NCBI GenBank assembly: GCA_008632985.1
Contig: QPGO01000076.1
Location: forward strand, 62,001 to 126,000
DNA length: 64,000 bases
Direction: 5' to 3'
Origin: Psammoneis japonica
Taxonomy: Eukaryota
The translations under genes and the position numbers were made by a program. Under the pieces are notes generated by a model. That model was not told the origin of the DNA. It made no database searches and saw nothing but the letters and a program-made list of their open reading frames with translations. How positions within the stretch are numbered: the first letter of the stretch is position 1; every line of letters begins with the position of its first letter. Shown here in pieces: positions 1 through 55,395 of this stretch.

Positions 1-480
1 CAGAACTTCAAAAATGCAGGTGGGAAACATTGAAACTGCAGCATGTGATGATGTGTTTCAAATCAATGTCTTGACCCAACTTGCTCCAAGCTGTGCCAAT
101 GAGTTGACAAACACAAACATGTCCGGCATTGACAATGTTGTGGCTGTCGTTCCCACGCACACCAATCACCACACAGTCATTCCGTCCCCCGATGAGGATG
201 CTGAACATCCAGAACAATTGTCAGCTGCTTCTCATCAACATCCTGACCCAACTGGATCCAAGTCATTCCAACAAGTTGATGAACATGAACATGTCCAGCT
301 CAGTTGCCAACCCCATCATTTTCGTTGGCTCCAATTGCAACAGTCATTCCGTCAGCTGAAATGGAAATGGAACATCCAAATTGATCACCTCTCGCTTCTC
401 CATCGATGTCCTGGCGCCCATCTGCGTCCAGACCAGCCAATCTGCAATGGAAAGTTCTCTCTGGTGTTGAGATGAAAGCC
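1..480 (-). pseudogene. Decayed FG-GAP (integrin-alpha beta-propeller-like) repeat protein fragment
   Basis: Minus-strand translations GRQDIDGEARGDQFGCSISISADGMTVAIGANENDG and GTAWSKLGQDID...NAGHVCVC match the FG-GAP repeat pattern. The frames are broken. Confidence 0.7.
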
Positions 481-1354
481 ACTGACACAGACTTGTCCAA
501 TTTGACAAACTGTTCCCATCGGCAGGGAAGCATCGTTTGTTTGACAGATCATGATGCGTCTTGAGACGAAAAATGAATGAAGAAAGCATGCAAACTGTGA
601 GCTTCAGGATTTTGTCATTGTGAGCACTGCACAAAAGGAAAAGACAAAGTTGGTGCAAAATCGGACAATCTTTCAACTTTCGATGATGAATGGTGCAATG
701 TTCTTCCCTCTTTGCCACTCAAGCTTTTCTTCATGTCGAAACTGTGATGCGCCTTGATCATGGTCATTTCTTTTGCGAGCATGGCAGTTGCCAAAAGGGT
801 CTTCAGGACTGCTGTTGGGAACTTCATGGCTCTTGACCCCAGGTGGCTTCTTGGAGGAAGGTTTGCTTGTGCTTGTCCTTTTCTTCTTGAGGAGGAAACA
901 CAATGCAGTGAGAAAAATTCACATCATTGGTGCGAACAAAATGAATGACACAGAAGGTAAAATCACTCACCTCGCAACAGCATGCTGGATCTGTGAAAAC
1001 AAGAGAATTCTGAAGCTCAAAATGAAACAACAACAAATGCAAGCACCAACCGTGACACCTGCGAACAGCAAACTGTGAACCTGAAGCAAACGGCAAAATG
1101 ATTTGTTTCACACAACAACCTTCGAGCAAAAGCCGCTTGTGCTGGCACACAATTGCTGAATGCTTTGCATGTGCAAGCCAGCTGCAAAGGATTTGTTGGC
1201 ACAGCACCTCAAAATGGCACTGCAACACAGGGAGATGATTGCCGGCACCGGCATGCATGCAATGGAATGAGGTGAGCACAATTGCGGGAGAGCTGTCGTG
1301 CTCCTTGTCTGGCGGAGCATTGATTTTTTATCCTTTGTTCATTTCACAAATGAG

Positions 1355-2097
1355 TGAGTGCGGTGCATGCATGTCCAACAACAATGAGCAAATCCAAAAT
1401 GTCACTGAAATGTCCTTCGAAGAAAGACACTCAGAAGAGTTTGTGCCACTGCCTGCACATGCAGGCAGTGCAGTGTCAGCCTTCTCATCGCCGGCACAAC
1501 AAAAAAGCAGACGCGATTTGAACAATGCACCATGGCACAATGTGCTGGCAATGCATGATGGTGTGTCTGAGAATCACCAGCCATGCTTTCCCCCTTGTCT
1601 CACAATGACACCTTTTGCACAGCCACCTGGCCTCACTCTCCCGCTGCACCCACTCTTGCCCCACTCGCTGGGGTGCGAGAGACTTTGGTGGTGGGTGGGT
1701 TGGGGTTGGGGTCAGGGTCAGCCCACCCAGCACTTTTTTCCCAGTCTTCTCTGCTTTGCGGTCATGCTTTTTGCATCTCTTTTCAACTTTCCTGCTGAGC
1801 TGTGTGATGGCAACTGTGGCATCCTCTTCTTGGCACTTTGTTCTTTCATGAGACTTTGCCACACCCCAAGAAAGTGTGGTTGCCACGAGTGAGAATGTCT
1901 CACTTTTTTGTGATGAAAACTCTTCTCCTGGACCCTTTGACTGATTTGATGTTTCTTTTGCACCTCTCTGGGTTCAAATGACTCACCCATTGCTGCTCTC
2001 TGAGCAAGCCTCCATTCCGTTGACAGTGTGACAACAACGCTGCTGCTTTGAGTCTGTGGCTCATTCTGAGCTTGTCTTTTCTTGGACTTTGAACAGC
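1355..2097. repeat. Dispersed repeat, copy 1 (paralog at about 4495-5330), probably a decayed retroelement segment
   Basis: Colinear similarity, e.g. atgtccaacaacaa...ctgaaatgtcctt...aagaaagacactcagaag...tttgtgccactgc in both copies. Confidence 0.85.
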
Positions 2098-4029
2098 AGA
2101 TGTCTGTTGTGTGTTGTCCACATTGCACTGCACAAGAATGCAGACGGCCTCGAAACAGGATTGGCGGCGGCTCAATGCATGCCTGAAATCCTTGTTTTTC
2201 TGGGTTTTGAGTCTCTTGATTCTTTCATCGAACTTTTCATGACAAGCATTGCCCCTCCTCTTGAATCAAATGATGTCCACAGAATCAAGGTCATTTTGAA
2301 TGTTTTGCAAGTTGGATCCTTGCACAGATGATCCACAATGACTTTTTTCCCGGGCGGGATCTTGCTCTTGAGTCCATTTGGTTTCTTGCAGATGCCAAGG
2401 TTGCCACCAGTTCCAGAACAAAAAGGACGGGTTCCAGTCCCAGGTGGGACTCGTGTGACACTGGGCCCGCAGAATTCTACGTGCGAGCTTCTTAGTGAAT
2501 TTAGACTGCAATGAAAATGTGAATGATCGCCAACAGAAAAAGAGGCAATTTTACGAACGCATCTCCTCCTCCATGCTTGAAGTGCATCATTGACAGTTTG
2601 CCCGGGTGCATTCTTCAGACATCAAAGAACACACCCAGTGCATTTTCATTCTCACAAATGTTGAAAATGGAAAGCCTTTGGCTTCGCAAAACAGGGAGTG
2701 TGAAACAATTTCGGAGAATGTGACACGTAGAAATGTGCGCGCGCGACATGCGACGCGATCCAAAAAACTGTTGATGTCACAGTGTGGTGGCACGAGGTCC
2801 CACCTAGAGCTGGAACGCGTCACAAAGGTCCGTTGACCCAGACAACCTTGCTTTCACAAATTGAAAGAGCAACTGCACAGGTGAGCCCAGGCCCATTGGA
2901 TTTCTTGGAGCACCAACTCTTCCTCAGATCTTTCCTCTGCTCCTGGACCGTGAAATCTGTGCCATCAACAGAGATCACAAAGATTTCATTTTGCCCGTCA
3001 AGGTCAACTCAAACAACCTGCATCAATGGAGAGCAATGAGAAAGCAAAAGAGTGAGTGCAGACATTCTAAAAACATGAATGGAGCAAACCACAATTCATG
3101 ACTCACCTTTTGTTCTTTCACAATGCTGCCGCGGCATTGACGTGCTTCCTGATGTGGTTGTGGCATGTTTCTTCAATTGGCCCCTGTCATCTGGACATTT
3201 TATTTTCTTCATCACAGGCTGCCACCCAGCTCAACACCATTGAGAAATTGCAAGCATTGATTTTGGCAATGTGAGCATTTGGGATTGTTGTCATTTGGAG
3301 GTCAACAAAAAGGGCTGCACAACCCTTGGGATGGACTCCAAAGTGAGAGACAAAGTGCAACATGCATTGTTTGAGCATGAGAAATTGTGCATGTTCACAA
3401 TTGTGCATTGTCAACAAATCAGTTGTGCAACAATCATGGATGCGCATGAAGGTCAGGTTGATCACACAGAATTGATTGGATGTCGAATTTTGCAACTGAG
3501 ATTGACAGATGATGTTGACACATGAGGCATCAATGTCAATCACATCCGGACAATCTGTTGTCACAACCATGTTCTCCAAAAAGCCTTTGCTCTGTAGAAG
3601 CAACACACAAACTTGTCAGGCCTTTGAGAGCTTGTCAGGAGAAACTCAAAAAGACAGAGCAAAATTTGACATCATGATTTTTCCACTTCGTGATTTGTTC
3701 TGCTTTCATTTGCACTTGTTCTTTGAGCATGGTGCATTGTGTGTGCACACCACAGAAGGCAAAAACACGAAAATGAAACTTTCATCCCATGCAGCCAATG
3801 GCAAGTCCTTCGTCAAGCAGGATGGAATTGCACCGCAACTGCTGGAGTTGATTTCTGTGCCAAAGTCACTCAAACCGAGCCAGGAGCTTGTCAAGATGGA
3901 GCAGTGCTTTCATCCTGGTGACAAAAAAAGTGCACCCACACAACTGATGTCAAGCGCTGCAACAAGCAAGGTGTTCCCAAGCACATCAAATTCCTGAATA
4001 ACTGCGAGAAGCTTCTGATTGGACAGAAT

Positions 4030-4495
4030 CTCAAGAACAGTCTGACAAGTTTCGAAAATGCACATGTTGTTGCAGGGAGATGCTCTGCAAGTCTTTGAGA
4101 ATGGAGCAATGAACATCGAAAACAAGGGTGCTGAGAGAGCCTTCCAAAAATGCCTGCATCATCTCTCCAATCATGTCTTTCAAAAGAGTGCGCTTCAGAA
4201 TCAGAAACGACACCCACGCCATGATCTTAAGAAGCCAGACTCCATGAAGATGAGAGAAATTGCTGCATGGGCTCAGGAGGTCAACAAAGACTTCAAGCAC
4301 TGTCCTCCCTTTGAGTCCAATCAGAAGCTGGATGGTGATGAGTTAAAGGATGTCATCTGCAACCTTGCACCTTGCAAATGGCACCATCAGTCAACCCTTC
4401 AAGGTTTTGAAATTTTGGATCACACCTTTGACAAGTTGGTTGAGTTTTTGGAATGTCTGGAGGCTGCAGAGGACATGTTTGATCAAATTCATGTC
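4030..4495 (+). mobile_element. Decayed Ty3/Gypsy gag fragment
   Basis: LLQGDALQVF...HVFQKSALQNQKRH...LKKPDSMKMRE...NQKLDGDEL...LQGFE...LVEFLECLE resembles stramenopile Gypsy gag. Expected Tyr positions read His or Cys. Confidence 0.7.
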
Positions 4496-5330
4496 AGTGC
4501 AATGCACATGTCCAACAACAAGCAAACCCAAATGTTGCTGAAATGTCCTTTCCAAAGAAAGACACTCAGAAGCTTTTGTGCCACTGCACACACATCAGCG
4601 CAGTGACAGCCCCTTCTCATCACCAGCACAAACAAAAAAAACAGACTCGATTTGAAAATTGCACCATGACACAATGTGCTGGCAGTGCATGGCGTGTCTG
4701 AGAATCGCCAGCCATGCTTTCCCCTTCATCATGATTTTACTCCCCTTCTTCTCATGACAACACCTCCTTTTGCACAGCCACCTGGCCTTGCTCTCCTGCT
4801 GCACCCACTCTTGCCCCGCTTGCTGGGGTGCAAGAGACTTTGGCAGCAACAACTTTCCTTTCTTCCAGGTGCCCCAGCTGATCCTCCTGGGCCCCATTGT
4901 TGGAAGCCCTTTGGGCTGAAGCACTCTGCTTTTGCAGCGTTGGCTTTTTTGCTTGCAGACGCAGCTGTGTGTGTGCCTGGCTGTGCCCCAGCACCCACCC
5001 AGCATTTTTCTCCCAGTCTTCTCTGCTTTGCTGTCACAATGGTTTTTGCATCTTTTTAATTTTCCTGCTGCTGAGCTCTGTGATGGCATCTGTGGCCTCC
5101 TCTTCTTCTTGACACTTTGTTCATTCATGAGACATTGTCACACTCCAAGAAAGTGTGGCTGCCACAAGTGAGAGCATCTCACTTGTTTGTGGTGGAAACC
5201 CTGCTCCTGGCCCCATTGTCCCATTGCTGCTTTTTGTGAGCAAGTCTCCACTCCATCAACAACATGATGACAGTGCCGCTGCTTTGAGTCTGGGCCTCTC
5301 TAAGCTTGCATCTTCTTGGGGTTGACAAGC
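4495..5330. repeat. Dispersed repeat, copy 2 (paralog of 1355-2097)
   Basis: Colinear similarity with 1355-2097. It abuts and truncates the gag fragment. Confidence 0.85.
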
Positions 5331-6499
5331 ATTGCCACTTGGACTCTCCTTTGCAAGCAAGCTTTCTTGTTCTCTCAGATTGCAGTGCATTGTGTTGGCC
5401 AAGTGCACCACAAATGCCAAGAAAAATTTTGGCAGTGCATTTGTGGAGAACAACAGTGGCAATGCCAGAGGTCACTGCTCCAGCCAGCCAAGCTTGGTTG
5501 TGTTCACACACAGTTTTCACATTTTCTGAACCTCCCATGTCACACATCACACAGTGTGGCCTCACACTTGCCTCCTCCCTGCATCTGTGATCATGTCTTT
5601 GCTTGGATGTGTCAAGCAAGTTCCGCCAGCTTGCCTGACTTTCCTGAAACAAGAAGAAATGGCTGGAAAGCCATTGAGAACAGCTGCTCTGCTGGCCCAC
5701 ACAATGATCAGCTGGGCAACTTCCCAAGCAGCAGTCTGCAGGAAAGGTGCTGTCAAAGGGTTTCTGTTTGCATGACAGACACCCAAAGATCCAAGGACAG
5801 CTTTTTGAGAGTGCTGTCACATGGCACACTGCAGCTGAGAGAGGCCAAGTCACAATCAACAAAGGTGAGTCCAGATGAGACAAGTGCAAGGCACAATGGT
5901 CCCTGAGGGTTTGTGTGTGTGCTCCAAGGAATCAGCAAAGTGGGCATGAGGGGCAAAGCCATGTTGCCTTGATTTTGCAACTTCATTGTTCATGTCAGTT
6001 GTCAAGATTGATTTTTGATTTGACAGCTGACGTGAAAAACAAAGTTGAAAAATCCAAAATCAAAGTTTTCCAGGTGCTTCTGACCCAGAAAACTTTGATT
6101 TTGAAGTGCTTTGATTTTGAAAAAGGGGTGCATGGAATGGGTCTCAGTCTTGAAAAAATGCACAGATGCCTGCAATGTGTGCTTTGCACTGAAATGAAAG
6201 AAAATCTCTCCAAGGAAAACTGTCACATTCTTGGTCTAAACAGACACTGTGATGGCTTCTGCACCTGCAGAACAAATCATTTGTCCAGCTGTTGTGTGCA
6301 GCATGCCTCCATGCTGACTGACATGGCAAGTTTGTGTTGCACCAGCCTCTGGTGCACAGCAGCACAGTGTTGCCAACATGCACCTGGGAAGCACAATCTT
6401 GCTGAAGGACATGTGGCTCTTTGACTTGGGCATTTTTAGAAGAGTGTCTGCAAGCTCAGCACCAACATGTTGTTTGGTCATCAACAGCAGTGTGGTGTG

Positions 6500-7900
6500 T
6501 GCAATGACGTCATCACTTGTGCAAAGTGCATGATGTGCAACGCAAATGTGTGTGATTTGATGTGATCCAAAATCCAAACAAATTTCAAATTTGACACAAT
6601 TCTTTGTTTGCACAGCTCCACTTTTTAGGAGACAACTGGTGCTCATGATTTTCACAGAGAACCACTTTTGTGAGGCATCACATTTGCATTTTTGTTGCTT
6701 GCAGCACATGGGGCACAGCTGATCTGGTTGTGCCATGTGGGATTGTGTCTCAACTGCCTCTTTCCACTGGTTTTGTCAGGCTGCTCCTGTGATCTCTCCG
6801 GAGTCTTCTGTGACAGTCTCTCAGTTTCCCATTGCTTCACTCACACCCTTTGTTCTTTTTTGCATCATGGTGAAAAGTTTGGGCTTGGCACTTGGTGCAG
6901 GAAACCACCAAAAATTCATGCCATTTGATGACATGAGCATTGGCAAATTCATGCCATTTGATGACATGAGATTGCCAGGCTGTCACACAGGTCCATGGCA
7001 ACCATGTTTTGCCAATTTGCAGCCAAAAACCATCATTCTGGAGCCCCAAAATCTCTCCTGTAGCAACCAATGCTCAGAGTGGTCATTGGCATGGTTGGTG
7101 CCAACACTCCGTCATCCAAACCATGTGCCAGGAAGACTGAAAATTTCTAAGAAGAGCCTCTGCAACTCTGCCACACTGGTGCCTTTCTTTTTTTTACATC
7201 TTCATTTCAGGCAGCAGCTGGAAAAGTTGGTCTGCCATTTTCTGATGCACATCTTGATGGCTGATGAGTGGTGGAATTCTTTTGTCCACCTTGACAATGG
7301 CACCTCAAATGTGGAACAGCTTGGTGTGGGCATGTGACCCCTTGATTTGTGTGCTGGTTTGGGAACAGAGTGAGCATCTGTTTGCTGGCACAACAAGCGG
7401 CCACTGAACAACAATCAAAGCAGTGCAGGTGGAGCGCCCCATCTGTCTTTTGTTCACAGTGGTGGCTCAGACTCTGCAGCCAATGACTGGGTTTTCTAAC
7501 CATGACATTCTTGGGCATTGGGTGCAAACAATCATGAGAACATTTTTTCTGCATGGAACCACAAGCTTGTCAAAAGGAAATGACCACTGAAGTTTTTGCA
7601 AAAACGCGACTGTTGACACAACACTCAGATGTGTGATGAACTCTTCCCTCTGCTCATCATGTGGAACAAGCACAGAGCTCACCCAGTCTTGAGCCTGGAA
7701 AATTGGAAGATGAATCTGGCCATGTGTTGTTGGCGGGGAAGACCATGCGCTGTTGGCGGGGAACACTGAGCTCACATTTTTGTCTCCAGCAGTTCGCACT
7801 GGTTGGGCATTCAACGCATGCATTGCACACAAGTGCATCACTTGCTGAACTCATCAAACACAAACAATGCTGTGCCAGATCACTTTTTGGCATCTTCTGT
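6500..7900 (-). mobile_element. Possible decayed piggyBac-like (DDE_Tnp_1_7) transposase
   Basis: Weak motif echoes across frames (SF.FDKLVVPCRK...MVRKP; NHANDHSEHWLLQERFW) and a Cys-rich C-terminal region. Heavily decayed. Confidence 0.3.
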
Positions 7901-8388
7901 CACAAAGTGAGTGGAAGTCAAAGAGCTGTCGATCCCGCCGAGTTGGTTGGCACAAGGCTGGGACAACAAACCAAAGGTGCCACAGCCCAAGATGCAGTTG
8001 TCAGAAGTGAGCAAGCAACAAGACAACAACAAAGACCATGAGGATGGAGGAGATGAGCCACAATGCCCCCCCAAAGAGAGGTCAGCACACTCAATTCAGA
8101 GCCAAACTTCTTGTGCGACTCACCTGCTCCTCCCCACACCTCTGGTTGCACACCACATCAAGCAAAATGTGATTTCCTTGTCGTGCCATCAAAACATGTT
8201 TTGGCTCTAAAATGTCGAGTGGATTCTGCCAGCTTGCCTGGCCTCACTTCCCCGAGACAAAATAAGAGCCTCACAAATCAAAAAATGGCAAGCCATGAGG
8301 AAAAATGACAAACATCCTGAAACGGCCCTGCCGTACATGCGGTCAGATCGTCCATTGCCGCTTTTATGACCTCATTCATCCTTTTACC

Positions 8389-10949: not shown

Positions 10950-12479
10950 ACAACGTAGCGGAGCTCTATGTTATTACTCTTAGTGTATGAGCGGTGCTTT
11001 TGTTTTTTGGTTAGGGTTAGCGCCGAACTGTTATTTGTGCAATTATTTGTATGGGAACTCAACGATATCGCTTTGTTTGCTTACGTCCTGCACGTACCCG
11101 ATTGAAGGTGATAAGGCGACCAACATGATGCCTTTTCAGTTCTTCGAGCATTACTTCAGAAACCCGAATATGATTGGACCCGACAAACGGAAAACGGCTT
11201 CCAACAAAGTGGCACTCGCTTCGATGCATCAGACCAAACCAAACGCAATGCTCGGACACCATCACTGCGACTACGGTAAGAGCTTTTTTGCAGTGAATCA
11301 CGGGCTGCTCCGCATTATCGATCTGAGCTCCTACAGTGACGTAAGGTTGATTCAGCTCAACACAAGTGACTTCAGCATCACCTCCAGCCGCTTGACATTA
11401 GATCTTACGCGCCTTGTCTTATGGTTGTATTTCATGCACCTATCCTCTACCTAAAGTATCTTTATACTCTGTTTGCTGGACACGTGAATGAAACACAGCC
11501 AACGAAAATGAAAGAGACAATGGAACCGTTGCTTGTCCATCAGAAGGTAAACTTGGTTGTGAATGGACACGGCCACGGCTACCTGAGAACCCACCCTCTT
11601 GCGTTTGGTCAGGTCAGATAAGTCTCGGCAAAGCCGTTCCTTTAGAACTGACAGATACTTCGATCCTCCTCACGCCTGCCCGATTCTTTTGTTGGAACAA
11701 AGGAGCAGGCAGCAATCGAGAGCACAATGTACCGGGATATCATAACAAGAAACAAGAAGAGTGGGTGGTAAAATGAGATCGATTTGAGTGAGGATGCGGC
11801 CACCGGCCACCTTCATGTGGCAAACGCAACTCACGCGAAGTTGGATTGGGTCCAAGACGACAAGAGCCAAGACATGCACGACAGCTTCTGGACATATAAT
11901 CCCCACTCTTCCAAGACGCAGTGTACCTCGCATGAGTGGAAATAGATCTCGCCGTTAGCAGCGAGTGTTTCCGATTGCCACTCCTTTAACTAATTGGCTT
12001 GTGCATTACACATCCACAACAGTCAAGGCATGTGACACAATGGACTAAACATGCGCACACGCTAATTTGGAAAAACTGCTTTTCCATTTTACATTTCATC
12101 TTTGTCGTTTTCCGTTGAACCATGACTGACTCCCGGGTCATCAAGATGAAAACCATCTAAGCCACTTTCCGCGTCGCCAATGACGCTTACGACGAGATCC
12201 CCACTGAGCGTCTAAAGCTCATCGTCGCTGCTGTCTTCAGGTGGAGGATGAAGAGCGATGCCATCGATGAACTGAAGCTGTCCATCACCACTGAGCTGGC
12301 GGGCAAGAGAGAGGAAGGGATTCTTCAAGTTGCAGTTCAACAAAGCGGAGAGTCCAAGCAACAGCGGGTTTGGAGCACGTGGCTTCGCTCTTACGAAAGA
12401 CGGCAACAGGTCTTCTATTTTTTGGTCCGCTCGTTCCAAACCCTCAACGACATGTACGATCACCAGCAGAGACACTCAA

Positions 12480-13800
12480 GATGCTGCGCTTGACTGCAAC
12501 CTCGCTCTGAGGCTGGGAGTTCCTCCAATCTCATCATCATCATGTTGTTCTTCCTTGTCGTCTCTTTGGATGCGGTGGCCCTGCAGCATGTGAGGTGCAC
12601 TGTGTGTGGGCATGGATGCCCCCTGTCCCTGTGCTCTGCGCTGGGATCTGGCAACCATTGACATTTCATCAAAGTGAATGTGAGGAGATTGTCTTCTCCC
12701 AAACATCAGAATGTAGAATGTGTTCAGAGCTTTGTGCAACGGTCAGAACACATTGTTTTTCATGAATGTCGTTGAATGGACATGAGATCTAGAAGCCGCA
12801 ATGGTGGACGAGAAGAGGAGAGAGCAAAAAACATGGAGAAAAAGCCAGTTTTGGAACAACCTGACAGAACAAGGTGATGGACTTAAGTGGCATCAGGCTT
12901 TTCAGATGGTGCATTTGCGTTCTGATGTTCAGATCAGAAGAGGCAAGGTTGATTGAAGTGCTGTCCAGATCAGTGTGATCAGAGAGCATGCTCATGGTGG
13001 TGGAAGAACATTCCTGGCTTGCCAAAGCCAAAATTGTTAGACCATTCAGATGGCACACTGAGCTCTGATGTGCAGATCAGACAAAACAAGGTGGATCGCA
13101 CTTGAATCCAGATCAGCTTGGAGCTGGCTTGCGGAGGACATCCGGATCCAGTGTGATCAGAGAGGGCGTGTTTGTGGCGGCAGGATGTGCCCCAAGCCTG
13201 CCAAAAACAAAGACACCTTCAGGCTGTTCAGACAGCATGCTCTCGCACTCTGATGTTCAGATCAGACAAAACAAGGAGGGCTGCACTGCGATCTGATCAA
13301 GTGGCTTGCGGAGGCTGCCCGGATCCAGTGTGATCAAGAGGGCATTTGCGGTGGTCGGGAATGTTCCGATCTGCCAAAAACAAAAACACCAAACTGCACT
13401 GTTCGTGCTCTGGTGGGACAAGTCAGAAGCAATGAGAGCAACACAGGTGCCATGCACAATCGACTTGGCTTGCGGAATCTCTCCGGATCCGAGTCGACGG
13501 CTGACTCATCGTGGCATTGCAGGCTGATCAAGGTGGTCAAGCCCATCCACTGTTTGTTGGCACCACACACACACAGCTCATGGGTGATTGTGCGAGGCAT
13601 GTGCCGCTCGGCAGAAGCAACATTTTCAGTGTTGTCGGCCCATGTCGGGTCAACGCAACTGATCCTGTCATCACCGGCAGTCCGCCAAACACCATGAGGG
13701 GAACTGGGGCGGCCTCTCGTCCATCGTCTGTGAACTTTCGTTCTACGAACATTGAGAATGTTTGAGAGATGTTGAGTCCTTTTCGTCCTGCTGATTGTCA
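12480..13800 (+). mobile_element. TpA-depleted decayed element with three internal imperfect repeats
   Basis: tctgatgt(t/g)cagatcaga recurs at about 12920, 13064 and 13249 with downstream similarity. Family not recognised. Confidence 0.55.
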
Positions 13801-13802
13801 TG

Positions 13803-14130
13803 GAAAATCTGTGTCGATTTGAAAATCTGCAAGATCATTTCGGGGCCGGATAAAATCTGTAAGACATTTTAACGGAAAATCTGGAATCTGGACCCCGTGC
13901 AAATGTGCGCAGGGTGTGTGCAGACCGCGCCAGGCCCACTTTTACCACGCCGGGCCTGCAGAAGGGTTGTTCAAAGATCGCATTTTAATTTGGCAAATTT
14001 TGGCAAAAACCAACCCCAGTTTTAGCCGAATAATTGAAAATCTGTGATTTTTGAAAATCTGTAACTGTTTCTGCGACCCCTTGAAAATCTGTAAGAAATC
14101 TGAACCCCAAATCTGTGCCACAGATTTTCT
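13803..14130. repeat. Cluster of (GA)AAATCTG motifs resembling transposon subterminal binding sites
   Basis: About ten direct copies of aaatctg, plus one inverted copy (cagatttt) near 14121. Confidence 0.7.
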
Positions 14131-14155
14131 ACAGCATGACAATCAGTGCGGGAAA

Positions 14156-32959: not shown

Positions 32960-33150
32960 ACGCATCACACTCAGCCAGAGCGAGGTGGGTTTATTGGACG
33001 CAAGATTGGAGGTGCGCACTGTCCGTCTCTTTAGCTCAACGACAGAACTTCACGTCTGCGGCTGCTTTTTAGAGTTTTTAATGCCACGGACAACTGGAGA
33101 GAGCAGGAACTAATGCACGCTTTTCACGCCACCGGAGACTGTTGTTTTTT
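32960..33150 (+). repeat. About 190-bp dispersed repeat, copy 1 (paralog 43562-43746)
   Basis: gacgcaagattggaggtgcgcactgtcc...gagactgttgtttttt is shared. Confidence 0.85.
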
Positions 33151-36100
33151 CTGCACCATTGAGGTGAGAACATGACAAGTTCTCAACTCTGGAGTTTTGC
33201 AGGGCTGGGTTCACAAGAAGGCTGGCACCCACTGAGCCAGTGTCAACCACACCAGCTGGTGAACACCATCTCTGATGTGGCATTTGGGAGCAGCAGGAAA
33301 GTCCTGCAGAGCAGTTCAAAATGCACAAGCCACTGACTCATGACCCACACCACTTGAATTTTGACTGGCCAGAGCGAGGAAATCCTGAGCAGGGTGGTTG
33401 CTGGATGTCTGGCGGGGCAACAATCTGGGAATGCATGCGCACACATGCATGACACTCCCACACCGCAGTGCAAATTTTTTGATTTCAATTTGAATTTCTT
33501 GCACACCACAAAGCAAGTCTTGGTTTTCACTTGAATTTTTTGTCGCCATGCCCCCCCAACAGAAAATTCAAATGTGACAAACACGCGGCCGCACAATGCT
33601 CTGGGTGCATTCTCACTTGTGATGCTTGGTCTCTTTTTGACGTGTGACAAATCACTTTCTGGTCAACCCCAAATTCACATCACAAGCAAACCATGTTTTG
33701 CTTGCAGTTCATGCTGTTCTTGATTTTGTGCTCAAAACACTCAACGCAATTTCTGTTGTCACCACTGCTGCGAGTTTGTGTTCTTGATTTTGTGCTGAAA
33801 GCACTCAATGCAATTTCTGTTGTCACCACTGCTGTGAGTTTGTCTCTGTGGTCATTCACTGCTTTCCACCAGCAAACATTGACACTCTGCACCCTGCATT
33901 GTTGTGAGGACCTCTCTGCTGTGTCTGTGTGTTGCCATCATCTTGACTCACTCCCCAGCCCATCTCTGTGGAATTGCTGTTGTTTGCAGCAGCTGCTTCT
34001 GAAGCCTCTTCAACTGTGCTTGCATCTGAGTTGTCACCTCCTGCTGCTTCCCCTTTGCTGTCACTCCAGGAAAGTTTTTGGAGCAGCCCACCCGCTCATT
34101 CTTTCCTTTTTCCCTCTTCCTTTTGTTGCCTTGCACCTCCTCTGACTTTTTTGTCTGCAGGCACTGAGCATCAACTCTGCCTTTTTTCTTTTTCTTATCT
34201 TCTACTGCACTGCACAGCTTGTTGTGTTGGTTGATTCCATCCTGGTTCCATCACACTTGGAGGGCACAGACTGCCTCTTGTTGCATCCATGTCTTTGTCC
34301 ACCTTGTGCTCCAGCTCCATTTTTCCATTGTTGTGTGGCTGCCTTGCAGCAGCTGTGATGCACAAGCCTGACAAAAGATTCCATGCTTGTGGTCAGCCAA
34401 TTGCTGACACCTTGGGTTGCCACCATCTCAAATTGTTCCATGCCAGCTGCCACAGAGCAGCAGTTGTCTGAGAACCAGAAGTGCATGCTTGGCAACTCAA
34501 TGCCCTTGTTGACTTCATCAATGAATTTCAGCCTGTTGTCTCTCACCATTTCTATGAGCAGCTCATGCATGGTCAAGAGCAGAAGGTCAGCAGCACTCCC
34601 CACTGCATTTTTCTGCCACCTGTTTGTGTGCACCAAGCACCTTCTTCCTCAAAACCTTGTTTCTGTTGTTTTGTTGTCAATTGTGTCTCTTCCTCACCTT
34701 CTCCTTGCTCAGTTCCCACCAAACTGTGCAGTCACCATTGGCCATGTTGAGGTGTCTGCAAAACCTTTTTCTGCATCTTGCTGCCAAAAGTCAGCTTTCT
34801 CTTGTCATCTGTCATGAACATTGTCTTTGGGCACACTGCTGTTGCAATGCAGTTGTTTGTTTGACTGTCAACAAACTTCCTTTTGGCTGCCTCTGAGCTG
34901 GCGACTGATGCCCCTGCAATGTGCGCATTGTGAGATCCCATCTCTGTTGTGTTGTGGGTGGTGACTGCAAGGAAATGCACAATTTGTGTTGGCAGCAATG
35001 CACACATCTCTCTTGCATTGTCCTTGCTGCAATGCGTGCACCTGATGAATCATTCTGTGCTGACATCTCCTCCCATGTGCCTCTGCTTTGCTGTTTTGTG
35101 CACCCAACATTCACCAACCACACCTGCCAGCACTTTGTTGGCCATCCTTTTTTTCTTCTGCTTCTCTCCTTTGAATGCCTGAAATTTTCAAATGTTTTTG
35201 AGGTTTGCATCAACACATGCATTGTTGCATTAAATTTGATTCTCCTGTCATTTCATGAGTTTGCCATTGTGTGTGCTGCTGCCTTTGTGCGCTTAATTTT
35301 TCAAACAGGGTGCCAGCAATTTAGCTAATTTGTGAGCACTTCAGTGAATTCAATCAGATTGTCAGCCCACAACTGAGGGGGCTGCAGCCACTTTCAATCC
35401 AAACTGCAAACTTCTCATTCAATTGGCATGCTGTCCAGGCACACATGCTTTTGCCCTTGCTCATTGCCTGCTCCTCCATTCTCTTCACCCCCTCCTCCTC
35501 CTTGTCCATTGCACCTGCACATCACCAGGTTCATCTGATTCTCCCCATTGTTGCATTTTGTTTGAATGGCAGTTGTTGCTGCTCTCTCCTGCCATTTCAC
35601 AAATCCACTTTTGCACGCACTGCTGCTTTTTGAATGCTGAGTTTTTCAATCAGGACACCAATTTGACCAATTTGCACACACTTTTGCAAATGCAATCAGA
35701 TTGTTGGCCCACAAGTGAGGGGGCTGCAGTCACTCCAATCTAAACTGCAAACTTCTCATTTTCAGTCTGAACGCTGTCCAGGCACCAGCACTTTTGCCCT
35801 TGCCCATCGCCTGCTCCTCCATTCTATCTGCCCCTTCCTCCTCCTCCATTGCAGCCACCTGCCCATCACCAGGTTCATCTGATTCTCCCCGCCATTGTTG
35901 CATTTTGCTTGAATGGCAGTTGTTGCTGTTCTCCTGCCATTTGACAAATGTGCCATTGCATGCACTGCTGCTTTTTGAATGCTGAGTTTTTCAATCAGGG
36001 CATCAATTTGACCAGTTTGCACGCACTTTTGCAAATGCAATCAGATTGTTGGCCCACAGCTGAGGGGGCTGCAGTCACTCCACTCCAAACTCCAAACTTC

Positions 36101-37925
36101 TCACTCAGTTGCCATGTTGTCCAGCCCCCCATGCTGTTGCCCTCACTCATCGTCTCCTCCTCTCCTCCGTCCTCTCTGCCCCTTCTTCCATTGCACCTGC
36201 CCATCACCGGGTTCATCCACCCCCCCTTGGCATCTCTTGGCCATGTGCGTCTGTCAATTCATTGCCTTAAAGACTGCAAATGTGTTGAGAAAAGGAGAGT
36301 TTGCAGGGCAGACAAGTTCTCAGGTGTGATGTGCAAGACCAGCTGGAAGGAAACAATTGCTGCGCATGAGGCAATTGTTCCAATGGCAATGGAAGGCACC
36401 ATGGTTGACACACGCGAGAAGCAGAGACAAGTTGTGAGTGCCACATGGCAAAAGCAACATGTGTGTCAATGTGCAAGATCACACCATGCCGGGCTTGCAT
36501 CAACAAGCAATTGACAATTTGAGACAAATCTCACAAAAAATGAGAGTGGACATTTTGTCAAGCTGGTGCGCATCTTGGGTTTTTGCACAACCAGATGGAG
36601 GTGGTGGCAGAAAGCCCTTGAATGGGTGGTGGGACCTTGCAACTCCGTCATCAGCAAGCCTCTGTGTGAGTGGGCTGACAACCAAGGCACAAAGCAGTTT
36701 TTTTTTGTGCATGAAAAAAGAGCACATTTGTGATTGCGTGCTGGATGACAGACAACACACTGGGGCGCCATGCCAACGTGACAACATTGATTGGCAGGAG
36801 AGACTGGCGACACCCCAGCCAACATGCAATGGACAAAATGTGCTGCAGCGGACATCACTCAAGAGGCAGAAGAGTCCACTGAGCCAACTCCAGCAAACCT
36901 TCAGAAGGCAATCAACAACTTTCATCTGAACATCAAATGGCCAGAGTTGAGGACTCTGAAAATGATGATGATGGGAAGGAGATTGCTCAGCAGGCAATCA
37001 CAAAAGGACAAACATTGTGACATGGGATTCTCCCTGCCTCAATGGAGGGGGCACTTTGGCTTGGACCATTTGCTGCTTGTGGGACAACCACAAAGTTGAG
37101 GGTGCTGACATTGCAAGAGGCAACCTGACTGATGTGAGCATTCTCATCATGCTGAGACAGTGGGTCAGCTGGCAGTGGCAGCAATGACGCCAGACATGTG
37201 CAGCCTGTGCTCAGCAGAGTTGTGCAGAGCCACACAACCACTGGATGTTAAAAATGATGACAGCGGGGAGGAGATCACCCACACAATCACAGAAGAGATG
37301 GCCATCACAAATTGAGGGAGATGATGTTTTGGGAGGCAACCCAGGACTGAGACAGCAGGTCAGCTGGTGTTGGTGGCAATGAGGTTGGCCACATGCAACT
37401 TGTGCAGAGCTGTGTGGGATGGTGACCAGGTGTCAAAAAATGCTGACAACCTTGAATGCGAGCTTGCAGCAAATTAAAAACCACATGATGCTGTCTCCAC
37501 AGCCCACCCTCATGGGAGGAAGACCATGGCACAGTGGACAAAGATTGGCATCAAGGGCCACTTGGATGACCGTGTTTCTCATGAGGACCTGAGTTGGGCA
37601 TCATCACAAATGAACATGGACGTGGACACCAAGGCAAAGAAGAGGCTTGCAGAAATGGCAGTCACACCTCATGAGCAATGGGTTGTGGGCAAGATGCAGA
37701 CTTTCTGGATCAGGGGGGCACAAGATGGTGCCAAGCTTGGCCAGCAACATCGGGAATGCGGTTGATGAAAAAAAAATAGCTCTGGACATGAGTTGACAAT
37801 GGGAAGCTCTCCCGCCCATCTCAGTGTCAGGGAGATTGACTGGGAATCTCAAGTCCAAGCCATGGGTGACCTCAAGCTCTCCAGGCAACGTTGGGTGGTG
37901 AAGCATGTTTCGCAGAACTGTGTGG
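33150..37925. mobile_element. TpA-depleted block containing decayed non-LTR retrotransposon (LINE) fragments
   Basis: On the + strand, 37530-37920 gives IKGHLDDRVSHEDLSWASSQMNMDVDTKAK and EIDWE...SRQRWVVKHVS, resembling the RNase H and downstream region of diatom LINEs. A probable opposite-strand LINE 3' fragment lies at about 34200-35300. Confidence 0.7.
35350..36110. repeat. Tandem duplication, period about 345 bp, about 2.2 copies
   Basis: aatcagattgt..gcccaca..tgagggggctgcag occurs at about 35352, 35694 and 36039. Confidence 0.9.
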
Positions 37926-38072
37926 AGATAATGAGATGTCATGCAGGACATTTTTCTCAATTAATTTCTTCACAAGGTCGATCCAAACCAGTCGGGCGAC
38001 TGCTTCTGCAAGACAACGTCGGGTGACGTAAAAGCCATTTGATGGTACTATGAGCAGCAATCTTTGAGCTAT

Positions 38073-40436: not shown

Positions 40437-40712
40437 CCTCGTTGCTGTTATGCAAAGCAGGGTATTCTGAGGAGAGAAGTCACAAGTAATGTTAAGCGAA
40501 TGCCTTTTAAAATAGTGAGATTCGCGATTCGCCTCGACCTCTCACCTCTTCCCTCTTCCAATCAAGCAAGCAGGCAGGCGCAACTAACGGCGGCTGTTTG
40601 AAGATTGTGAATAGTTGCTATGGCCAGGATTTTTGGCGGCACCAACCAACTTCAGGAAGGGGCATGTAGTACTGAATTTCGCGTACGTTTCTACGTGGAA
40701 TTTTGCTTTTTT

Positions 40713-41140
40713 ATGACTGACGTGGAGCAGAAATGTCGAATTTACTTATGATTCCAAAATGATTGCAAGACCCACAGGTTTTTATTTTCTGTAAGAACTG
40801 GTACGATAGGAGCATGAATGACAGGCATTTGTAACAGACATAGTTTTTTTTTCAGGTGATAGTAAAGCAACGTCCGTAAGATAGTATCATAAGATAGTAT
40901 CATAGAAATACTGAAACACGTTGTGCATACAGTACTATGCCTGTGATTTTGGATATGCATTTATGATATGACTGACGTGGAGCAGAACTGTCAATTTTAC
41001 TTAGGATTCCAATATGATTCCAAGACCCACTGGTTTTTATTCACTGTAAGAACTGGTACGACAGGAACATGAACGACAGGCATTTGTAACAGACATAGTT
41101 TTTTCCCCAGGTGACAGTAAAAAGCACCGTCCGTTAAAGA
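40713..41140 (+). repeat. Two direct imperfect repeats (period about 255 bp), with a third decayed copy at about 42090-42200
   Basis: atgactgacgtggagcagaa...ctgtaagaactggtacga...acaggcatttgtaacagacatagttttt occurs at 40713 and 40968. Confidence 0.88.
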
Positions 41141-42199
41141 TAGGGCCCTACTGTCATACCGGTAGAAATACGGCACTAAGAGCATCTTCGCCAGTGAGTC
41201 GTAAACATAAACCTATGTCCGTACGTCTTCCGATACGAATGAGATTCACAAAAAATCATCATTTTCGGTGGATCGTAAACATATTTTTTGCGCTAATAAC
41301 CTTTCGAATTTACGATTCATGAAAGTGAATCGCAAATCAGGCCTTGGATACGATCCACCTCCAAAATCGTAAACGAAAATCGTAAATTTCTGGTACAAAA
41401 AGGGTGTAGAAATCCTGTAGAAAGTGCGTGTCACCATGACGAAACGACAATCGACGCTTTCTTGATGAGAGGACCTTACAGAGGCCCAACAATTAAGACT
41501 TTGTCGTATCTTATGAACTTACATACGGCCGCATCGAGATATGGGAGGAGAACCGACATATGGGGGGTTTATGGGGTCAGAAGAGAATAAGGCATAAATC
41601 GTGTGATAACATTTCGCTTGTTTTCGCGATGTAGAATGACTTTCACAACATAGTAACACATAGACATATAATATGAATTATTCTCTATTGATAGACGTCG
41701 ACATATCTTTGAATAGACGGTGATTTGTGTCGTATATTGCGTTCAAAGCCGCCATGGCGTCATGTAAAATTCAACAAGTCCGTCCTACCATCAGTTAGTT
41801 ATTGATATACGTGTATGGAGTTGGTTGTTACCTCAACGTCTGCCCAACCATCGGCCGAATGTGAATACGATTGTGATCGACTGAAAATGATGGTCGCGTG
41901 CAGAATCGTAAACTTATACGGGGCAGTCTGTTCGCTTGTCCTTTTAGGTTATGTTCCTATGTTTATGTTTATGTTTACGACTCACTGGCGAAGATGCTCT
42001 AAAACACACTGTGCACACAGTGCCTGTGACACAGCACATCTGTGTTGTGCAACAGAGATCTAATGTGCTCAAGTGTACCTACGTGGCAGAATTTTGGATG
42101 TGCATTTATGATGTGACTGACGTGGAGCAGAGCTGTCGAACACTTGCTTGAGATTCCAATGTCCCCTGCTCACGCACACGAACCCACCAGTGGTCTGTG

Positions 42200-42660
42200 T
42201 GCATTGAAACAATGCTTTGGTGATGGCAACACATGCAGTGCATTGTGCAGTCTCCCAGGCTCTCAAGATCTCTCCAGGAAAAATGGTTTTTCATCAAGAT
42301 GTGATTTTAGATCCACCTGTCACATCATGGATTTGGTTGGTGCCCAATGAAGACCGCCAACAAGCTCTCATTGATGCCAACCTTCAACGTGCAAATGCCA
42401 AGCCCTGGTGCTGCAATCATCACACAACAGGTGGGGGCAAGTTCTTGTCACATCCATTGACCCTGCCAAATTAGAGACATGGGCTCATGGCCCTTGTCCT
42501 GTCATTCAAGTGCAAGCCAACAGCACAATCGTCATCCAACAAGCTCCACATGTTGTTGAGAGCGTCAGTGTCAGACCTGCAGCGCCACCTTGGGTTTCAG
42601 GTTTTTTTTTAATGTCTTGGTTTCCCTCTTGTCCTTTTGATTTTGTTCATTGGAAATTTT
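42200..42660 (+). mobile_element. Decayed Gypsy integrase C-terminal fragment related to the element at 55131-60508
   Basis: CAVSQALKISPGKMVFHQDVILD...LIDANLQRANAK...IDPAKLETWAHGPCPVIQV aligns with CAVSRALKISPGAMVFQRDMILD...IVNANLRRANAK...IDPTKLEPRAHGPHPVVQA. Confidence 0.88.
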
Positions 42661-43561
42661 GAAATTTTGGGTTTCTCTGACATGATTCTTGCTTTACGTG
42701 AATTTTCCATGCGTTTCCATGTGGAATTTTGCATCTTTCATTGCTGATGTGGAGCGAAATTGTTGAGGTCACTTGTGACTCCAGCTGGCTCCAACACTCA
42801 CTGGTTTCCATTTTCTGGAATCCACGCAAACCAGGCCAACAATTTGTTTTGCACAGCAATCTGTGGAAGTGTGTGACAAAAAAGTCATTCTAAGTTTCTG
42901 TTGCACAGAAACTCAAAGCACCTTCAGCATGCATTTCAGGGAGAACAGCAAGTTGTTGTGCTCATTGCCCAATCTCTCACCTCTTTTTTCATCTCTGCTG
43001 CTGGCATGTCACCATGACAAGGGCGAAGGACTGAGACAACAAGAGGGTTGTTTTTGCTCTCTTTTGTCATGTTTCCAAGTCTCATTTGGCGACGCTGAGC
43101 CCAGCTGCAGCTTCCACTCACACAGCAGAGCATTGGGACAAGGCTTGAGGTGGCTCTCAGGAGAAAAGCTGTTGCTGACTTGGAGCCAGCTGGCAGAGCT
43201 GCAGTTGGCAGAGAAGCACTTGAGAAGTCATCAAAGTCTGCACTGCATTGGCCCCACTCAAGGCACTGTGCTGTGCAGCTGAGCTGATTGCCAGGCCAGG
43301 CTTGAAGCTGGGGTGGTTCCTGGAGAGAGCAGAAGATGGAAGCTGCAGACCCTGGTGTGCATGGGAAGCTTTTGGAGCTTGGCATGCTCTTGGGGTGGGG
43401 GGCACATCAATGAGAGAAGACTGGGTGAACAAGTCTCTGCTGGAGGCCATGAAGTTCATGATTATGATGGCTCACTTTCCCAGGTGTGCACCACAAAACT
43501 GTTGTCAAAAATTCATGTGCACACACAAAGAACATCATTTTGTCTTGGTGCGTAAACTGGC

Positions 43562-43746
43562 GGCATCACAACTCAGAGGTGGGATTTGACGCAAGATTGG
43601 AGGTGCGCACTGTCCCGTCTCCCGTTTGACTCCCTAGACAGGACTTCACTGAGCCTTTTTGCAAGAGTTTTTGACAGCACGGACAGCTAGAGAGAGTAGG
43701 AACCAAACGCGTAATATTTTACACCACTAGAGACTGTTGTTTTTTG
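43562..43746 (+). repeat. About 190-bp dispersed repeat, copy 2
   Basis: Paralog of 32960-33150. It ends immediately at the stop codon of the dehydrogenase gene. Confidence 0.85.
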
Positions 43747-44985: not shown

Positions 44986-45159
44986 CTCTGCAGAACTGTC
45001 AACACTGTATGTATTACAGCAGCGAGTGATCGAAGAAACGAACAGTCGATCAACTTGATGACAGGACCAGAATCTATCTCATCTTCCACGCATCACAAAA
45101 AAATATTCGATTTCGCGCCACAAATTGAAATCTGACGTCATCGCAGGCAGGAAGGACGG

Positions 45160-51100: not shown

Positions 51101-51950
51101 GCTCAAACTGTTTGTTTTGCACACTCTTGGCATCATCCGTCAAACAGTGAGAAAAAGCACACGCGCGTGCTTCAAAACACGCCTGCACTCCACCAATTGT
51201 TCATTGGCCGTCTTGAGAAATTCCACATGTTGGTTCACTTGGCATCTAAATTGGATTCTTGCAACAAATCCATGCATTGTTCTGTTTCACGCAACTGCTT
51301 CATGGCAAAGGCTTTGCGCTTTGGCGCGCACACAATGGCGCTTGCGGCAGCGCAGCAGACACCGACCCAACTCTCGCTTGGCCCAGGCCGCATCCGATGG
51401 ATCGTTGGGGCAAACTTGTTGTGCTTGCGCAGCAATGTAGACACCCATGTTGGCACCGCATGGTCCTTCCAATCACCAGCACACATTCAATGACATTCGT
51501 GCCGACAAGGCTGGCTTGCTGACGTGGCAGTTTTTTGAATCAAATCCTTCGCCACCATGCGTGAAAGCTCATTTGCACTTTGAGCATGTTGGCGCCGTTC
51601 CACAGCAGAGCAGCAGTCACAATGAGGATGAAATGGCAAAAGGATGTTGTTTGCCATGACACGTGGACGTTTCATCATGGCAATCTCTCCGAAAAAATGA
51701 GAAATGAGAAATGATGGAGGGTGCGCGATCCGATCATGTTGAAGTTGAAGAACAGCTCAATGAGGCAAAACACTCCCATTGTGGAAAGGACTGCAAGACG
51801 CTCATGACTTAAGTCAGTCACGAACGCTCGTCGTCACTCATTTTTTGTGCCGCCGACAAAAAAAATCTTTCGTGCGATTTGTTGCATTTTCAAAATTCGC
51901 CAGCATCATTCTCACTTCCCACTCAACACCAATCAATCAAGTTGCCATAA
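45160..51950. other. TpA- and CpG-depleted block of unidentified decayed repeats
   Basis: Near-absence of TA over about 6.8 kb, with only spurious Cys/His-rich ORFs. CpG is partly retained towards the right edge (51.2-51.9 kb). Confidence 0.85.
47980..48835. repeat. Direct duplication of about 340 bp, period about 523 bp
   Basis: cagcatggttgc.tgctgttgtgcactggccc.atgttgccttgttgtccccaacaagtcagtgcagac occurs at about 47982 and 48506. Confidence 0.92.
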
Positions 51951-54815: not shown

Positions 54816-55130
54816 AGATGTTGTTCGTGGTTGAGTTGAATCATGGTTTGTATTTTTGTGTCGACGTGTTGTAAAACATAGTGTCCGTCGACAAGCAATC
54901 TCATGATGGGAAGTGGAAAGAATATTCGCGACCAAACGGCTCGCGAAGCAAAAAAATGAGGTGAAAGTGGTGGCGGGAATTCTTGAGAACAAGGCGTAGA
55001 AATGTACCAGAAGATCCGTAGAGCTACGTGTTTTTGTCACGTAGCCGCTCAGTACACAAAAGCTGCATGAAAGATCGCGCGTGACTCATCACTCGTGAAG
55101 CGCCTCCGTGACCCGTGACTGAGCGCTGAG

Positions 55131-55292
55131 TGCAAGGTTTAACGAGATAAAGACTTCAGTGATAACAAAATTGTGAGCGAAAGACCGAGGTAACGAGGGT
55201 CGCTTTCAGCGAAGCCCGTTACAACGGCTTCCGTTATATCTAATAGGTTCATTAATACTATATATCAGAAAAATAAGGTGCGAGACACTGCA
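55131..55292 (-). repeat. 3' LTR (162 bp)
   Basis: Identical to 60347-60508 by eye. Preceded on the minus strand by PPT GGAAGGGAAGAG (55293-55304). Confidence 0.95.
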
Positions 55293-55395
55293 CTCTTCCC
55301 TTCCATGATTCGAGTGTCGCGGGACTCAAAAAATTTAAATTCCAATGGATGAGGATAGAAGGGAAACCCAAATGTTGGGGAGAAAACCCTTAACC

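Follow-up and report, generated by a model that had tools for sequence, protein, structure and literature searches.

Hypermutation directed at transposons is known as a C-to-T process, in repeat-induced point mutation (RIP) and in the action of APOBEC enzymes, and as adenosine-to-inosine editing by ADAR on RNA. Here we analysed a window of 64,000 nucleotides of eukaryotic DNA (~47% GC) from Psammoneis japonica (assembly GCA_008632985.1, contig QPGO01000076.1, positions 62,001 to 126,000 of the forward strand; all coordinates below are those of the window), in which repeated DNA, including a Ty3/Gypsy long terminal repeat (LTR) retrotransposon, has been stripped of TpA (hereafter TA) dinucleotides. 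The comparisons presented below demonstrate the direction of change, from TA to TG or CA, its restriction to TpA, its preference for certain 3′ neighbours, and its targeting of repeats with the neighbouring genes spared; the loss of CpG (CG) to TG or CA is a second, separate and slower process. The whole reading that we favour, and consider rather probable, is a TpA-specific hypermutation of repeats with a preference for 5′-TAY-3′ (Y, pyrimidine; R, purine) and with separate CpG loss, in which an adenine deaminase would act on single strands.

RIP of ascomycete fungi is alike in that transition hypermutation is confined to repeats and transposons with sharp edges beside intact genes, follows a dinucleotide context, occurs in strand-biased events, and leaves open reading frames (ORFs) full of missense changes. 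RIP, however, changes C to T at CpA and thereby creates TpA and AT-rich DNA, whereas the present process destroys TpA and turns A:T into G:C while the GC content is constant, so that the direction is reversed: the observed-to-expected ratio (hereafter ratio) of TA is 0.03–0.08 within the depleted blocks and stands at 0.14 inside the Gypsy element. Moreover, RIP targets any duplicate of a few hundred bp or more, but a duplicated host gene in the window (8389–10952 and 16284–19351) is TA-normal, and the window genes resemble those of diatoms, not of fungi. APOBEC3 on retroelement cDNA is likewise a host deaminase with a fixed short context that acts on one strand and leaves dead but intact-looking copies; it converts C to U on the minus strand, which appears as G-to-A on the plus strand, unlike the A:T-to-G:C change at TpA seen here. 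CpG decay through cytosine methylation accounts for the CG-to-TG/CA half of the changes in old blocks, where CG ratios are 0.17–0.59 in five blocks and copies differ by CG versus TG or CA, a sequence pattern from which methylation is presumed; it cannot, however, remove TpA, and the young Gypsy element has lost TA without CG loss.

ADAR hyper-editing of animal double-stranded RNA and of retroelement RNA also gives clustered A-to-G changes with U favoured 5′ of the A, which can be fixed in new copies. Its rule is a 5′ neighbour U or A with G favoured on the 3′ side, whereas here A after A is untouched (Lys is kept at 30/33 and Asn at 22/24 conserved positions, and the AA ratio on the Gypsy sense strand is 1.31) and a 3′ G is disfavoured (TAG-to-TGG yields a gain of 2.8 per kb where TAC-to-TGC yields 13.6). 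Nor are the changes limited to the sense strand as expected for ADAR, since Tyr-to-His is found at 5/25 positions and Val-to-Ala at 5, and the depleted blocks are strand-symmetric; ADAR itself is described as metazoan-specific (PMC3239186). The adenosine deaminases TadA and ADAT2, which act on A34 of tRNA and at TACG sites of bacterial mRNA, edit an A that follows U and precedes a pyrimidine, with Tyr to Cys as the protein outcome (PMC5630033), and in the present element Cys occupies 17/25 conserved Tyr columns. Editing of mRNA by TadA depends on a TACG motif within a loop and leaves TAT unedited (PMC5630033), whereas here TAT is lost (14.4 per kb) with a matching rise of TGT (11.1 per kb), TGYC, TGYG and TGYT all gain, and the changes are in the genome, not in RNA alone.

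Neighbour context of surviving TpA sites

Blocks were delimited by dinucleotide profiles and by a two-state segmentation on TpA density, and the five blocks poor in both TA and CG (Table 1) were pooled. The pooled ratios are 0.04 for TA and 0.27 for CG, with CA at 1.80 and TG at 1.77 (1.5–1.9 for CA/TG across the five), and block 1–8207 has 24 TpA where ~578 are expected from base composition. No dinucleotide besides TA and CG is depleted (AA 1.24 vs 1.15 in normal DNA, AT 0.84 vs 0.92), and the CA/TG excess of 77 per kb is about the sum of the TA loss (~41 per kb) and the CG loss (~38 per kb). The only further rise is that of the GC dinucleotide (1.27 vs 0.96 in normal DNA), and among the tetramers of the depleted blocks the strongest enrichment is that of NTGC/GCAN (1.8–2.35 fold); both fit a change of TAC to TGC. 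The GC content is 0.47–0.51 in depleted blocks and 0.45–0.48 in normal DNA. Because GC content, AA/TT and AT change so little, generic GC-biased drift is excluded. An earlier reading of this DNA made from its letters alone (the sequence-only reading) had argued against such drift from the enzyme-like context.

That reading had noticed that the few TA left in the first block were mostly of the form YTAR, and had proposed that the mutator prefers 5′-TAY-3′. All the sites that it named are present, 1–3 bases from where it had placed them: 4228 tctTAaga, 4344 agtTAaag, 5057 tttTAatt, 5301 ctcTAagc, 7148 ttcTAaga, 3068 ttcTAaaa, 6237 gtcTAaac, 6437 tttTAgaa, 6626 tttTAgga and 7497 ttcTAacc, and the one placed at 8206 lies within ctctaaaa at the block edge. 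The 24 survivors of block 1–8207 comprise 13 YTAR, 6 YTAY, 5 RTAR and no RTAY, so YTAR does form the majority (54%) although 11/24 fall in other classes. This differs from the normal DNA of the window, where YTAR accounts for 250/1568 (Fisher p = 2.3e-5), and when the block alone is set against the depleted blocks' own dinucleotide make-up, YTAR departs with p = 0.02 and RTAY with p = 0.007.

In the five pooled blocks (n = 64) the counts of YTAR, YTAY, RTAR and RTAY are 36/16/10/2, compared with 250/424/410/484 in normal DNA (n = 1568; chi2 = 75.6, p = 2.6e-16); the four blocks not used for the first observation give 23/10/5/2 by themselves (chi2 = 51.2, p = 4.5e-11), and the YTAR share is 0.38–0.67 in each block singly. 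The sequence-only reading predicted that RTAY would be the most depleted class and YTAR the least, and the depleted-to-normal ratios fall in exactly this order: YTAR 0.144 (36/250), YTAY 0.038 (16/424), RTAR 0.024 (10/410) and RTAY 0.004 (2/484). Expressed as half-sites with both strands pooled, the ratios are 0.081 for TAA, 0.065 for TAG, 0.020 for TAC and 0.013 for TAT. Normalising each NTAN by NCAN plus NTGN of the same DNA retains the order, with TTAA, CTAA and TTAG highest and ATAC and GTAT at zero. The contrast also remains (p = 1.3e-10) with normal DNA outside long ORFs as the baseline (YTAR 0.205, RTAY 0.272), which is free of the coding bias against TAA and TAG. Likewise, the blocks' own dinucleotide make-up predicts 0.322 for YTAR and 0.187 for RTAY, whereas 36/64 and 2/64 are observed (chi2 p = 9e-5). 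The CG sites that survive in the depleted blocks are enriched in GCGC and CCGC.

Changed sites in the Gypsy element

The Gypsy element has reverse transcriptase, RNase H and integrase in that order between LTRs, as Ty3/Gypsy elements do, and its pol reading frame is open across 1036 codons. We set pol against 9 related genes of metagenomic origin (locus L010 was left out, with counts identical to those of L009), and its protein with 120 listed homologues that are 47–65% identical, the first 60 of which were aligned with Gypsy pol (P0121). Tyr makes up 0.58% of Gypsy pol against 3.52 +/- 0.41% in the 120 homologues, none of which has low Tyr (minimum 2.56%), and Cys makes up 4.4% against 1.81 +/- 0.31%. 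In the 25 columns where at least 60% of the 60 homologues carry Tyr, Gypsy pol has Cys 17 times, His 5 times, Tyr twice and Phe once, and other conserved residues are retained (W 14/14, C 9/9, D 33/35 and R 40/42, beside the Lys and Asn counts given above). The remaining frequent replacements likewise amount to TA changes: those of Ile by Val, Met by Val and Thr by Ala number 12 after a codon ending in T and 6 without a preceding T, and Val GTA has become Ala GCA at 5 codons. Among codons that start with A after T, A-to-G change is seen in 13/16 scorable T|AY cases (Ile, Met, Thr) and in 0/4 T|AA cases (Lys, Asn; Fisher p = 0.007).

The nucleotide comparison gives the same preference on the sense strand. 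Loss of TAC (13.2 per kb) is accompanied by a gain of TGC of 13.6 per kb and loss of TAT (14.4 per kb) by a gain of TGT of 11.1 per kb; for TAA (loss 6.7 per kb) the gain of TGA is 0.9 per kb, and for TAG (loss 5.3 per kb) that of TGG is 2.8 per kb. Change of TAY to TGY thus makes up 24.7 of the 28.4 per kb of sense-strand TG gain, and the base at +2 can be C, G or T. After a 5′ pyrimidine, the gain of TTGY (9.2 per kb) covers the entire loss of TTAY (6.4 per kb), whereas after a 5′ purine the gain of ATGY (3.2 per kb) covers less than half of the loss of ATAY (7.9 per kb), a shortfall that fits competition from the other strand. The TA sites that survive in the element, in sense orientation, comprise YTAR 16, YTAY 13, RTAR 6 and RTAY 2, compared with 165/358/206/320 in the relatives (chi2 = 24, p = 2.4e-5), so survivors and changed sites alike support the proposed TAY (equivalently RTA) target. 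The three interior Tyr codons of pol are indeed each preceded by T (residues 260 tttTAT, 314 actTAC and 624 tttTAC), and a fourth surviving Tyr codon of the depleted part, residue 6 (cgaTAC), has A before it. Sense-strand A-to-G outnumbers T-to-C by about 3:1 in the element, and its integrase end (55600–56600) is the most depleted part, with 2 TA per kb.

Because these transitions can never create a stop codon, the hypermutated pol has stayed open and long ORFs litter the blocks. A TA ratio below 0.40 was found in none of the 10 metagenomic pol loci. Four of them (L001, L002, L005 and L008) have TA ratios of 0.40–0.46 and sense-strand TG ratios of 1.33–1.53, which may reflect the same bias in milder form or else nothing more than the usual coding bias.

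Differences between copies

Contigs were assembled by exact k-mer words from a public sequencing run that contains DNA of the window, and per-site differences were read for 40 of 1686 rows, covering the stretch 51083–51314 and three Gypsy sites; the counts for these two are among the differences listed. In another copy of 51083–51314 from the same sample, TA stands at no fewer than 7 sites at which the window reads CA (5) or TG (2). The contexts of these 7 sites are ATAC (twice), GTAC (twice), GTAT, ATAG and GTAA, and 6/7 of the changes fall on the TAY-reading strand. The same stretch shows 3 CG-to-TG/CA changes and 2 TA|CG double differences, the latter at 51166–51167 and 51247–51248 and in both directions, and four more CG|TA pairs occur between paralogues inside the window. 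The Gypsy rows (57303, 57990 and 58220) are not of the TA type. Over the whole run, copy-to-copy differences are mainly transitions: in a tally without sequence context, A>G, G>A, C>T and T>C number 298, 316, 311 and 329, and each transversion 42–62.

Copies within the window show the same change. The repeat unit at 40673–40794, compared with 42699–42820, and that at 40946–41013, compared with 42091–42160, differ from their depleted counterparts by GTAC to ATGC, CTAC to CCAT and ATAT to ATGT, plus CG to TG. Three tandem copies of a unit of ~343 bp lie at 35240–36217 in block 33112–37928, and one keeps TA (TTAG, CTAA) at sites that read TG and CA in the remaining two; there are also 8 CA|TG double differences between tandem copies inside a depleted block. 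Both observations suggest that the change was made in place, after duplication at the DNA level. Paralogues differ by indels and transversions too. The duplicated host gene (2.7 kb, 94–95% identity), on the other hand, is TA-normal and not hypermutated, with TA versus TG/CA at 20/122 differences; hence, duplication alone is not the trigger.

Targets and order of events

The summed contig depth is 2000–3800 over the Gypsy element and 200–4100 over 46002–50670, far above the ~57 of single-copy flanking DNA, which indicates that the depleted DNA is repeated in the genome. TA loss precedes CG loss, because the Gypsy interior and the region of 51.0–51.9 kb are TA-poor with normal CG. The Gypsy insertion is young, since its two LTRs match at 166/166 positions and a contig from the same sample is without it. 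In this contig 55029 and 60508 are linked through 25 other letters; it resembles an allele without Gypsy, the joint being 100 bp off the LTR edge at 55129.

The blocks directly adjoin intact genes. A D-2-hydroxyacid dehydrogenase gene (ORF 43747–45078) occupies a 1.47-kb TA-normal island (43635–45104) between two depleted blocks, and the block edges lie within ~100 bp of the ends of this ORF. A Pfam search of 100 stop-to-stop ORFs of at least 90 amino acids from the depleted blocks gave no family above the cut-off and one sub-threshold match (Tsc35, E = 0.0064); the sole transposon assignment in the older blocks is the integrase relic at 42209–42553, which was found by DNA similarity. Strand-phased tracts within the depleted blocks were considered and rejected, since TG/CA imbalance at p < 0.01 was found in 1/46 windows of 500 bp.

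Proposed mechanism and its difficulties

We propose that the mutator would act on one strand per event and prefer 5′-TAY-3′, which is 5′-RTA-3′ on the opposite strand. RTAY would then vanish because it is targetable on both strands, and YTAR would persist because it is a poor target on both. TA would be lost first and CpG would decay later, leading to blocks in which TA and CG are nearly gone and CA and TG abound. The adenine would be deaminated to inosine and read as G on single-stranded transposon nucleic acid, the substrate being either the non-template DNA strand during transcription or RNA and cDNA intermediates, and the enzyme would probably be a nucleic-acid deaminase outside the ADAR family. 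We favour adenine deamination because A-to-G on the sense (non-template or RNA) strand dominates in the young Gypsy element, and because the context of U, A and pyrimidine together with Tyr-to-Cys change recalls TadA/ADAT-type deaminases as portrayed in PMC5630033. In addition, stramenopiles carry uncharacterised deaminase families that are predicted to edit or mutate nucleic acids (PMC3239186), and the stramenopile deaminase-SAM-Tudor family and the LmjF36.5940-like deaminases described there are candidates; this is a lead only, not evidence.

We suggest, more tentatively and without thinking it the likelier outcome, that the process may be a heritable genome defence of diatom-like algae and a chemical mirror of fungal RIP, in which a natural enzyme, working on the DNA of transposons or on single-stranded intermediates of it, would convert A:T to G:C specifically at TpA with a symmetric RTAY optimum. 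In that case Tyr codons and both TA-containing stop codons would be erased, and a new stop would never arise. Should this enzyme be an adenine deaminase, it would to our knowledge be the first natural DNA adenine mutator.

Several observations weigh against the favoured explanation or limit its form. Roughly one in four of the Gypsy changes is a sense-strand T-to-C, an outcome that sense-RNA editing alone cannot yield. Moreover, 3/5 of the Tyr-to-His changes, one Leu-to-Pro and one Leu-to-Ser are on the strand that reads TAR, and the TAY rule is a preference and not absolute. CTAG survives less (3/53) than TTAA (13/70) or CTAA (10/54), and survivors are A-rich at +2 (51% vs 28%) and A/T-rich at +3; hence, the context rule is wider than one neighbouring base. 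Part of the surviving TA may be newly made, from CG or from CA/TG, and one TA of the window, at 51247–8 (YTAR, tcTAaa), is CG in the other copy. The baseline taken as normal, that is, host genes or distant relatives of 43–60% identity, may mismatch the starting composition of the repeats. Both LTRs of the Gypsy element and the adjoining 294 and 630 nt of its interior (55129–55590 and 59714–60510) are unmutated, with TA density normal or high, despite their RTAY sites, a sparing that neither an RNA-level nor a DNA-level model explains alone. Finally, change of the A in TAY and change of the T in RTA, that is, A-to-G and opposite-strand T-to-C, would leave the same trace in DNA.

Alternative explanations

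This last equivalence leaves some room, though in our judgement not much, for modification of thymine instead of adenine. A TET/JBP-like oxygenase would turn the T of 5′-RTA-3′ in silenced repeats into 5-hydroxymethyluracil (5hmU) or 5-formyluracil, mispairing with G would give T-to-C, and the same chromatin would bear 5-methylcytosine decaying to T. Such modifications have precedents, since dinoflagellates are known to carry 5hmU at TpA and kinetoplastids base J at the TA of their telomeres. The coincidence of TA and CG loss in old blocks is in keeping with this idea; in each case the base converted is the 5′ pyrimidine of a YpR step, or the complement of that pyrimidine. The coupling is not obligatory, however, because TA loss without CG loss is found in the Gypsy interior and at 51.0–51.9 kb. 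The 3:1 excess of sense-strand A-to-G (17 Cys vs 5 His) would moreover demand a modification biased to the template strand, and a search of the literature on 5hmU, transposable elements and TpA found nothing relevant.

The changes might instead have arisen solely on the RNA of retrotransposons, through an ADAR-like or TadA-like editor, and have been inherited via reverse transcription with the chromosomal DNA untouched; this we regard as improbable. The Gypsy element is young and yet has Cys or His at 22/25 conserved Tyr positions, sense-strand A-to-G predominates in it, and replacement of Tyr (TAC) by Cys (TGC) is what typifies mRNA editing by TadA (PMC5630033), all of which such an editor would account for. 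It would not account for the quarter of the changes that are sense-strand T-to-C (Tyr-to-His 5, Val GTA to GCA 5), nor for the tandem copies of a depleted block, whose TA versus TG/CA differences and 8 CA|TG double differences suggest change after duplication. The depleted blocks, too, are strand-symmetric and without recognisable retroelement domains in their 100 ORFs. As for known editors, the AA ratio and the poor use of TAG depart from the ADAR neighbour rule, and TAT changes as much as TAC with no requirement for G at +2, which departs from the TadA motif TACG.

The YTAR excess might also have arisen without any target preference, if new TA were made mainly in YTAR, for example by double deamination of YCGR, or if the repeats had a different starting composition, but we give this very little weight. 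The YTAR 'survivor' at 51247–8 that aligns with CG may be an instance of the former, the blocks' own dinucleotide make-up already lifts the expected YTAR share to 0.32, and normal DNA, being mostly coding, shuns TAA and TAG in frame (YTAR 0.125 in ORFs vs 0.205 outside). The excess nevertheless holds against every baseline, including the non-ORF one and that of the blocks' own composition, the changed sites independently show the same preference, and RCGY is about as common as YCGR in normal DNA (414 vs 470), yet RTAY is nearly absent.

That the pattern stems from an artefact of sequencing or assembly, or from generic GC-biased drift or gene conversion, is hardly credible: on some long-read platforms modified bases can be systematically miscalled, but contigs of the public run match the depleted block with 0–1 differences over 726, 933 and 1274 nt and a paralogue is read as TA in the same data (the run may be the assembly's own source, so that this rules out a consensus or polishing artefact, not every platform effect), GC content is equal in depleted and normal DNA with AA, TT and AT little changed, and paralogues also show indels and transversions.

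Implications

A literature search, from whose coverage most subscription journals were absent, brought up no paper on hypermutation of repeats directed at TpA, whether in diatoms or in other organisms. If a process converts A:T to G:C specifically at TpA under a defined neighbour rule, a known type of defence would have acquired a new chemistry, in a major marine algal group, and a natural adenine-directed DNA mutator, if true, would be of interest for the building of base editors. The context rule makes the enzyme searchable, as an activity that prefers TAY. The occurrence of repeats as long Tyr-free open frames is explained, since these transitions never create stops. In practical terms, the TA and CG ratios together with the YTAR share could serve as a signature with which to date and find silenced DNA in such genomes.

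Genes, repeats and feature coordinates

The ORFs of the TA-normal parts encode ordinary proteins, namely two tandem prolyl oligopeptidases, a Wbp11-domain protein, the D-2-hydroxyacid dehydrogenase and an ABC-class ATPase (Pfam). The best named relatives of the ABC-class ATPase are all from diatoms, at identities of up to 59%, and the window genes are most diatom-like. The features of the depleted DNA and of the Gypsy element are collected in Table 1.

Table 1. Positions and properties of depleted blocks, repeat copies and Gypsy features in the window (TA, CG, CA and TG values are observed-to-expected ratios unless given as counts; the first five rows are the pooled blocks)
Feature	Position	Strand	Remarks
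TA- and CG-poor block	1..8207	.	24 TA (0.04); CG 0.27; CA 1.73; TG 1.82
Shorter depleted block	12214..13850	.	8 TA (0.08); CG 0.59
Depleted block	33112..37928	.	13 TA (0.04); CG 0.17
Depleted block	42108..43634	.	Includes integrase relic and mutated repeat-unit copies
Depleted block	45105..51947	.	12 TA (0.03); CG 0.25, near normal in 51001-51947
Sixth block, TA-poor only	55591..59713	-	TA 0.14; CG 0.89 (normal); Gypsy interior
TA-normal repeat-unit copies	40673..41143	.	Unmutated; mutated copies at 42091-42160 and 42699-42820
Decayed Gypsy integrase-end relic	42209..42553		In block 42108..43634; 65% identical to 55775-55442, reverse strand
Gypsy LTR retrotransposon, hypermutated interior	55591..59713	-	Sense-strand TG 1.56, CA 1.25
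pol ORF (reverse transcriptase, RNase H, integrase)	55396..58506	-	Pfam RVT_1, RT_RNaseH, rve
gag-like ORF of Gypsy element	58892..60154	-	No Pfam match; N-terminal part within TA-normal zone
3′ LTR	55129..55294	-	166/166 identical to 5′ LTR; TA-rich, unmutated
5′ LTR	60345..60510	-	Identical to 3′ LTR

The prolyl oligopeptidase genes form a tandem duplicate (8389–10952 and 16284–19351) with the copies ~8 kb apart and 94–95% identical. Each gene spans three overlapping frames, which implies short introns or frameshifts, and the second copy has an extra internal duplication of 539 bp (17066–17604 vs 17604–18142). Block 1–8207 contains an internal repeat (1354–2085 vs 4493–5319). Tandem repeats of ~180 bp are present at 14100–14721 in TA-normal, AT-rich DNA, with a partial copy (13730–13784) at the edge of block 12214–13850. 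In-frame coding repeats are found at 25825–26034 (42 nt) and at 30747–32133 (72–78 and 142 nt), in long minus-strand ORFs without a Pfam match.

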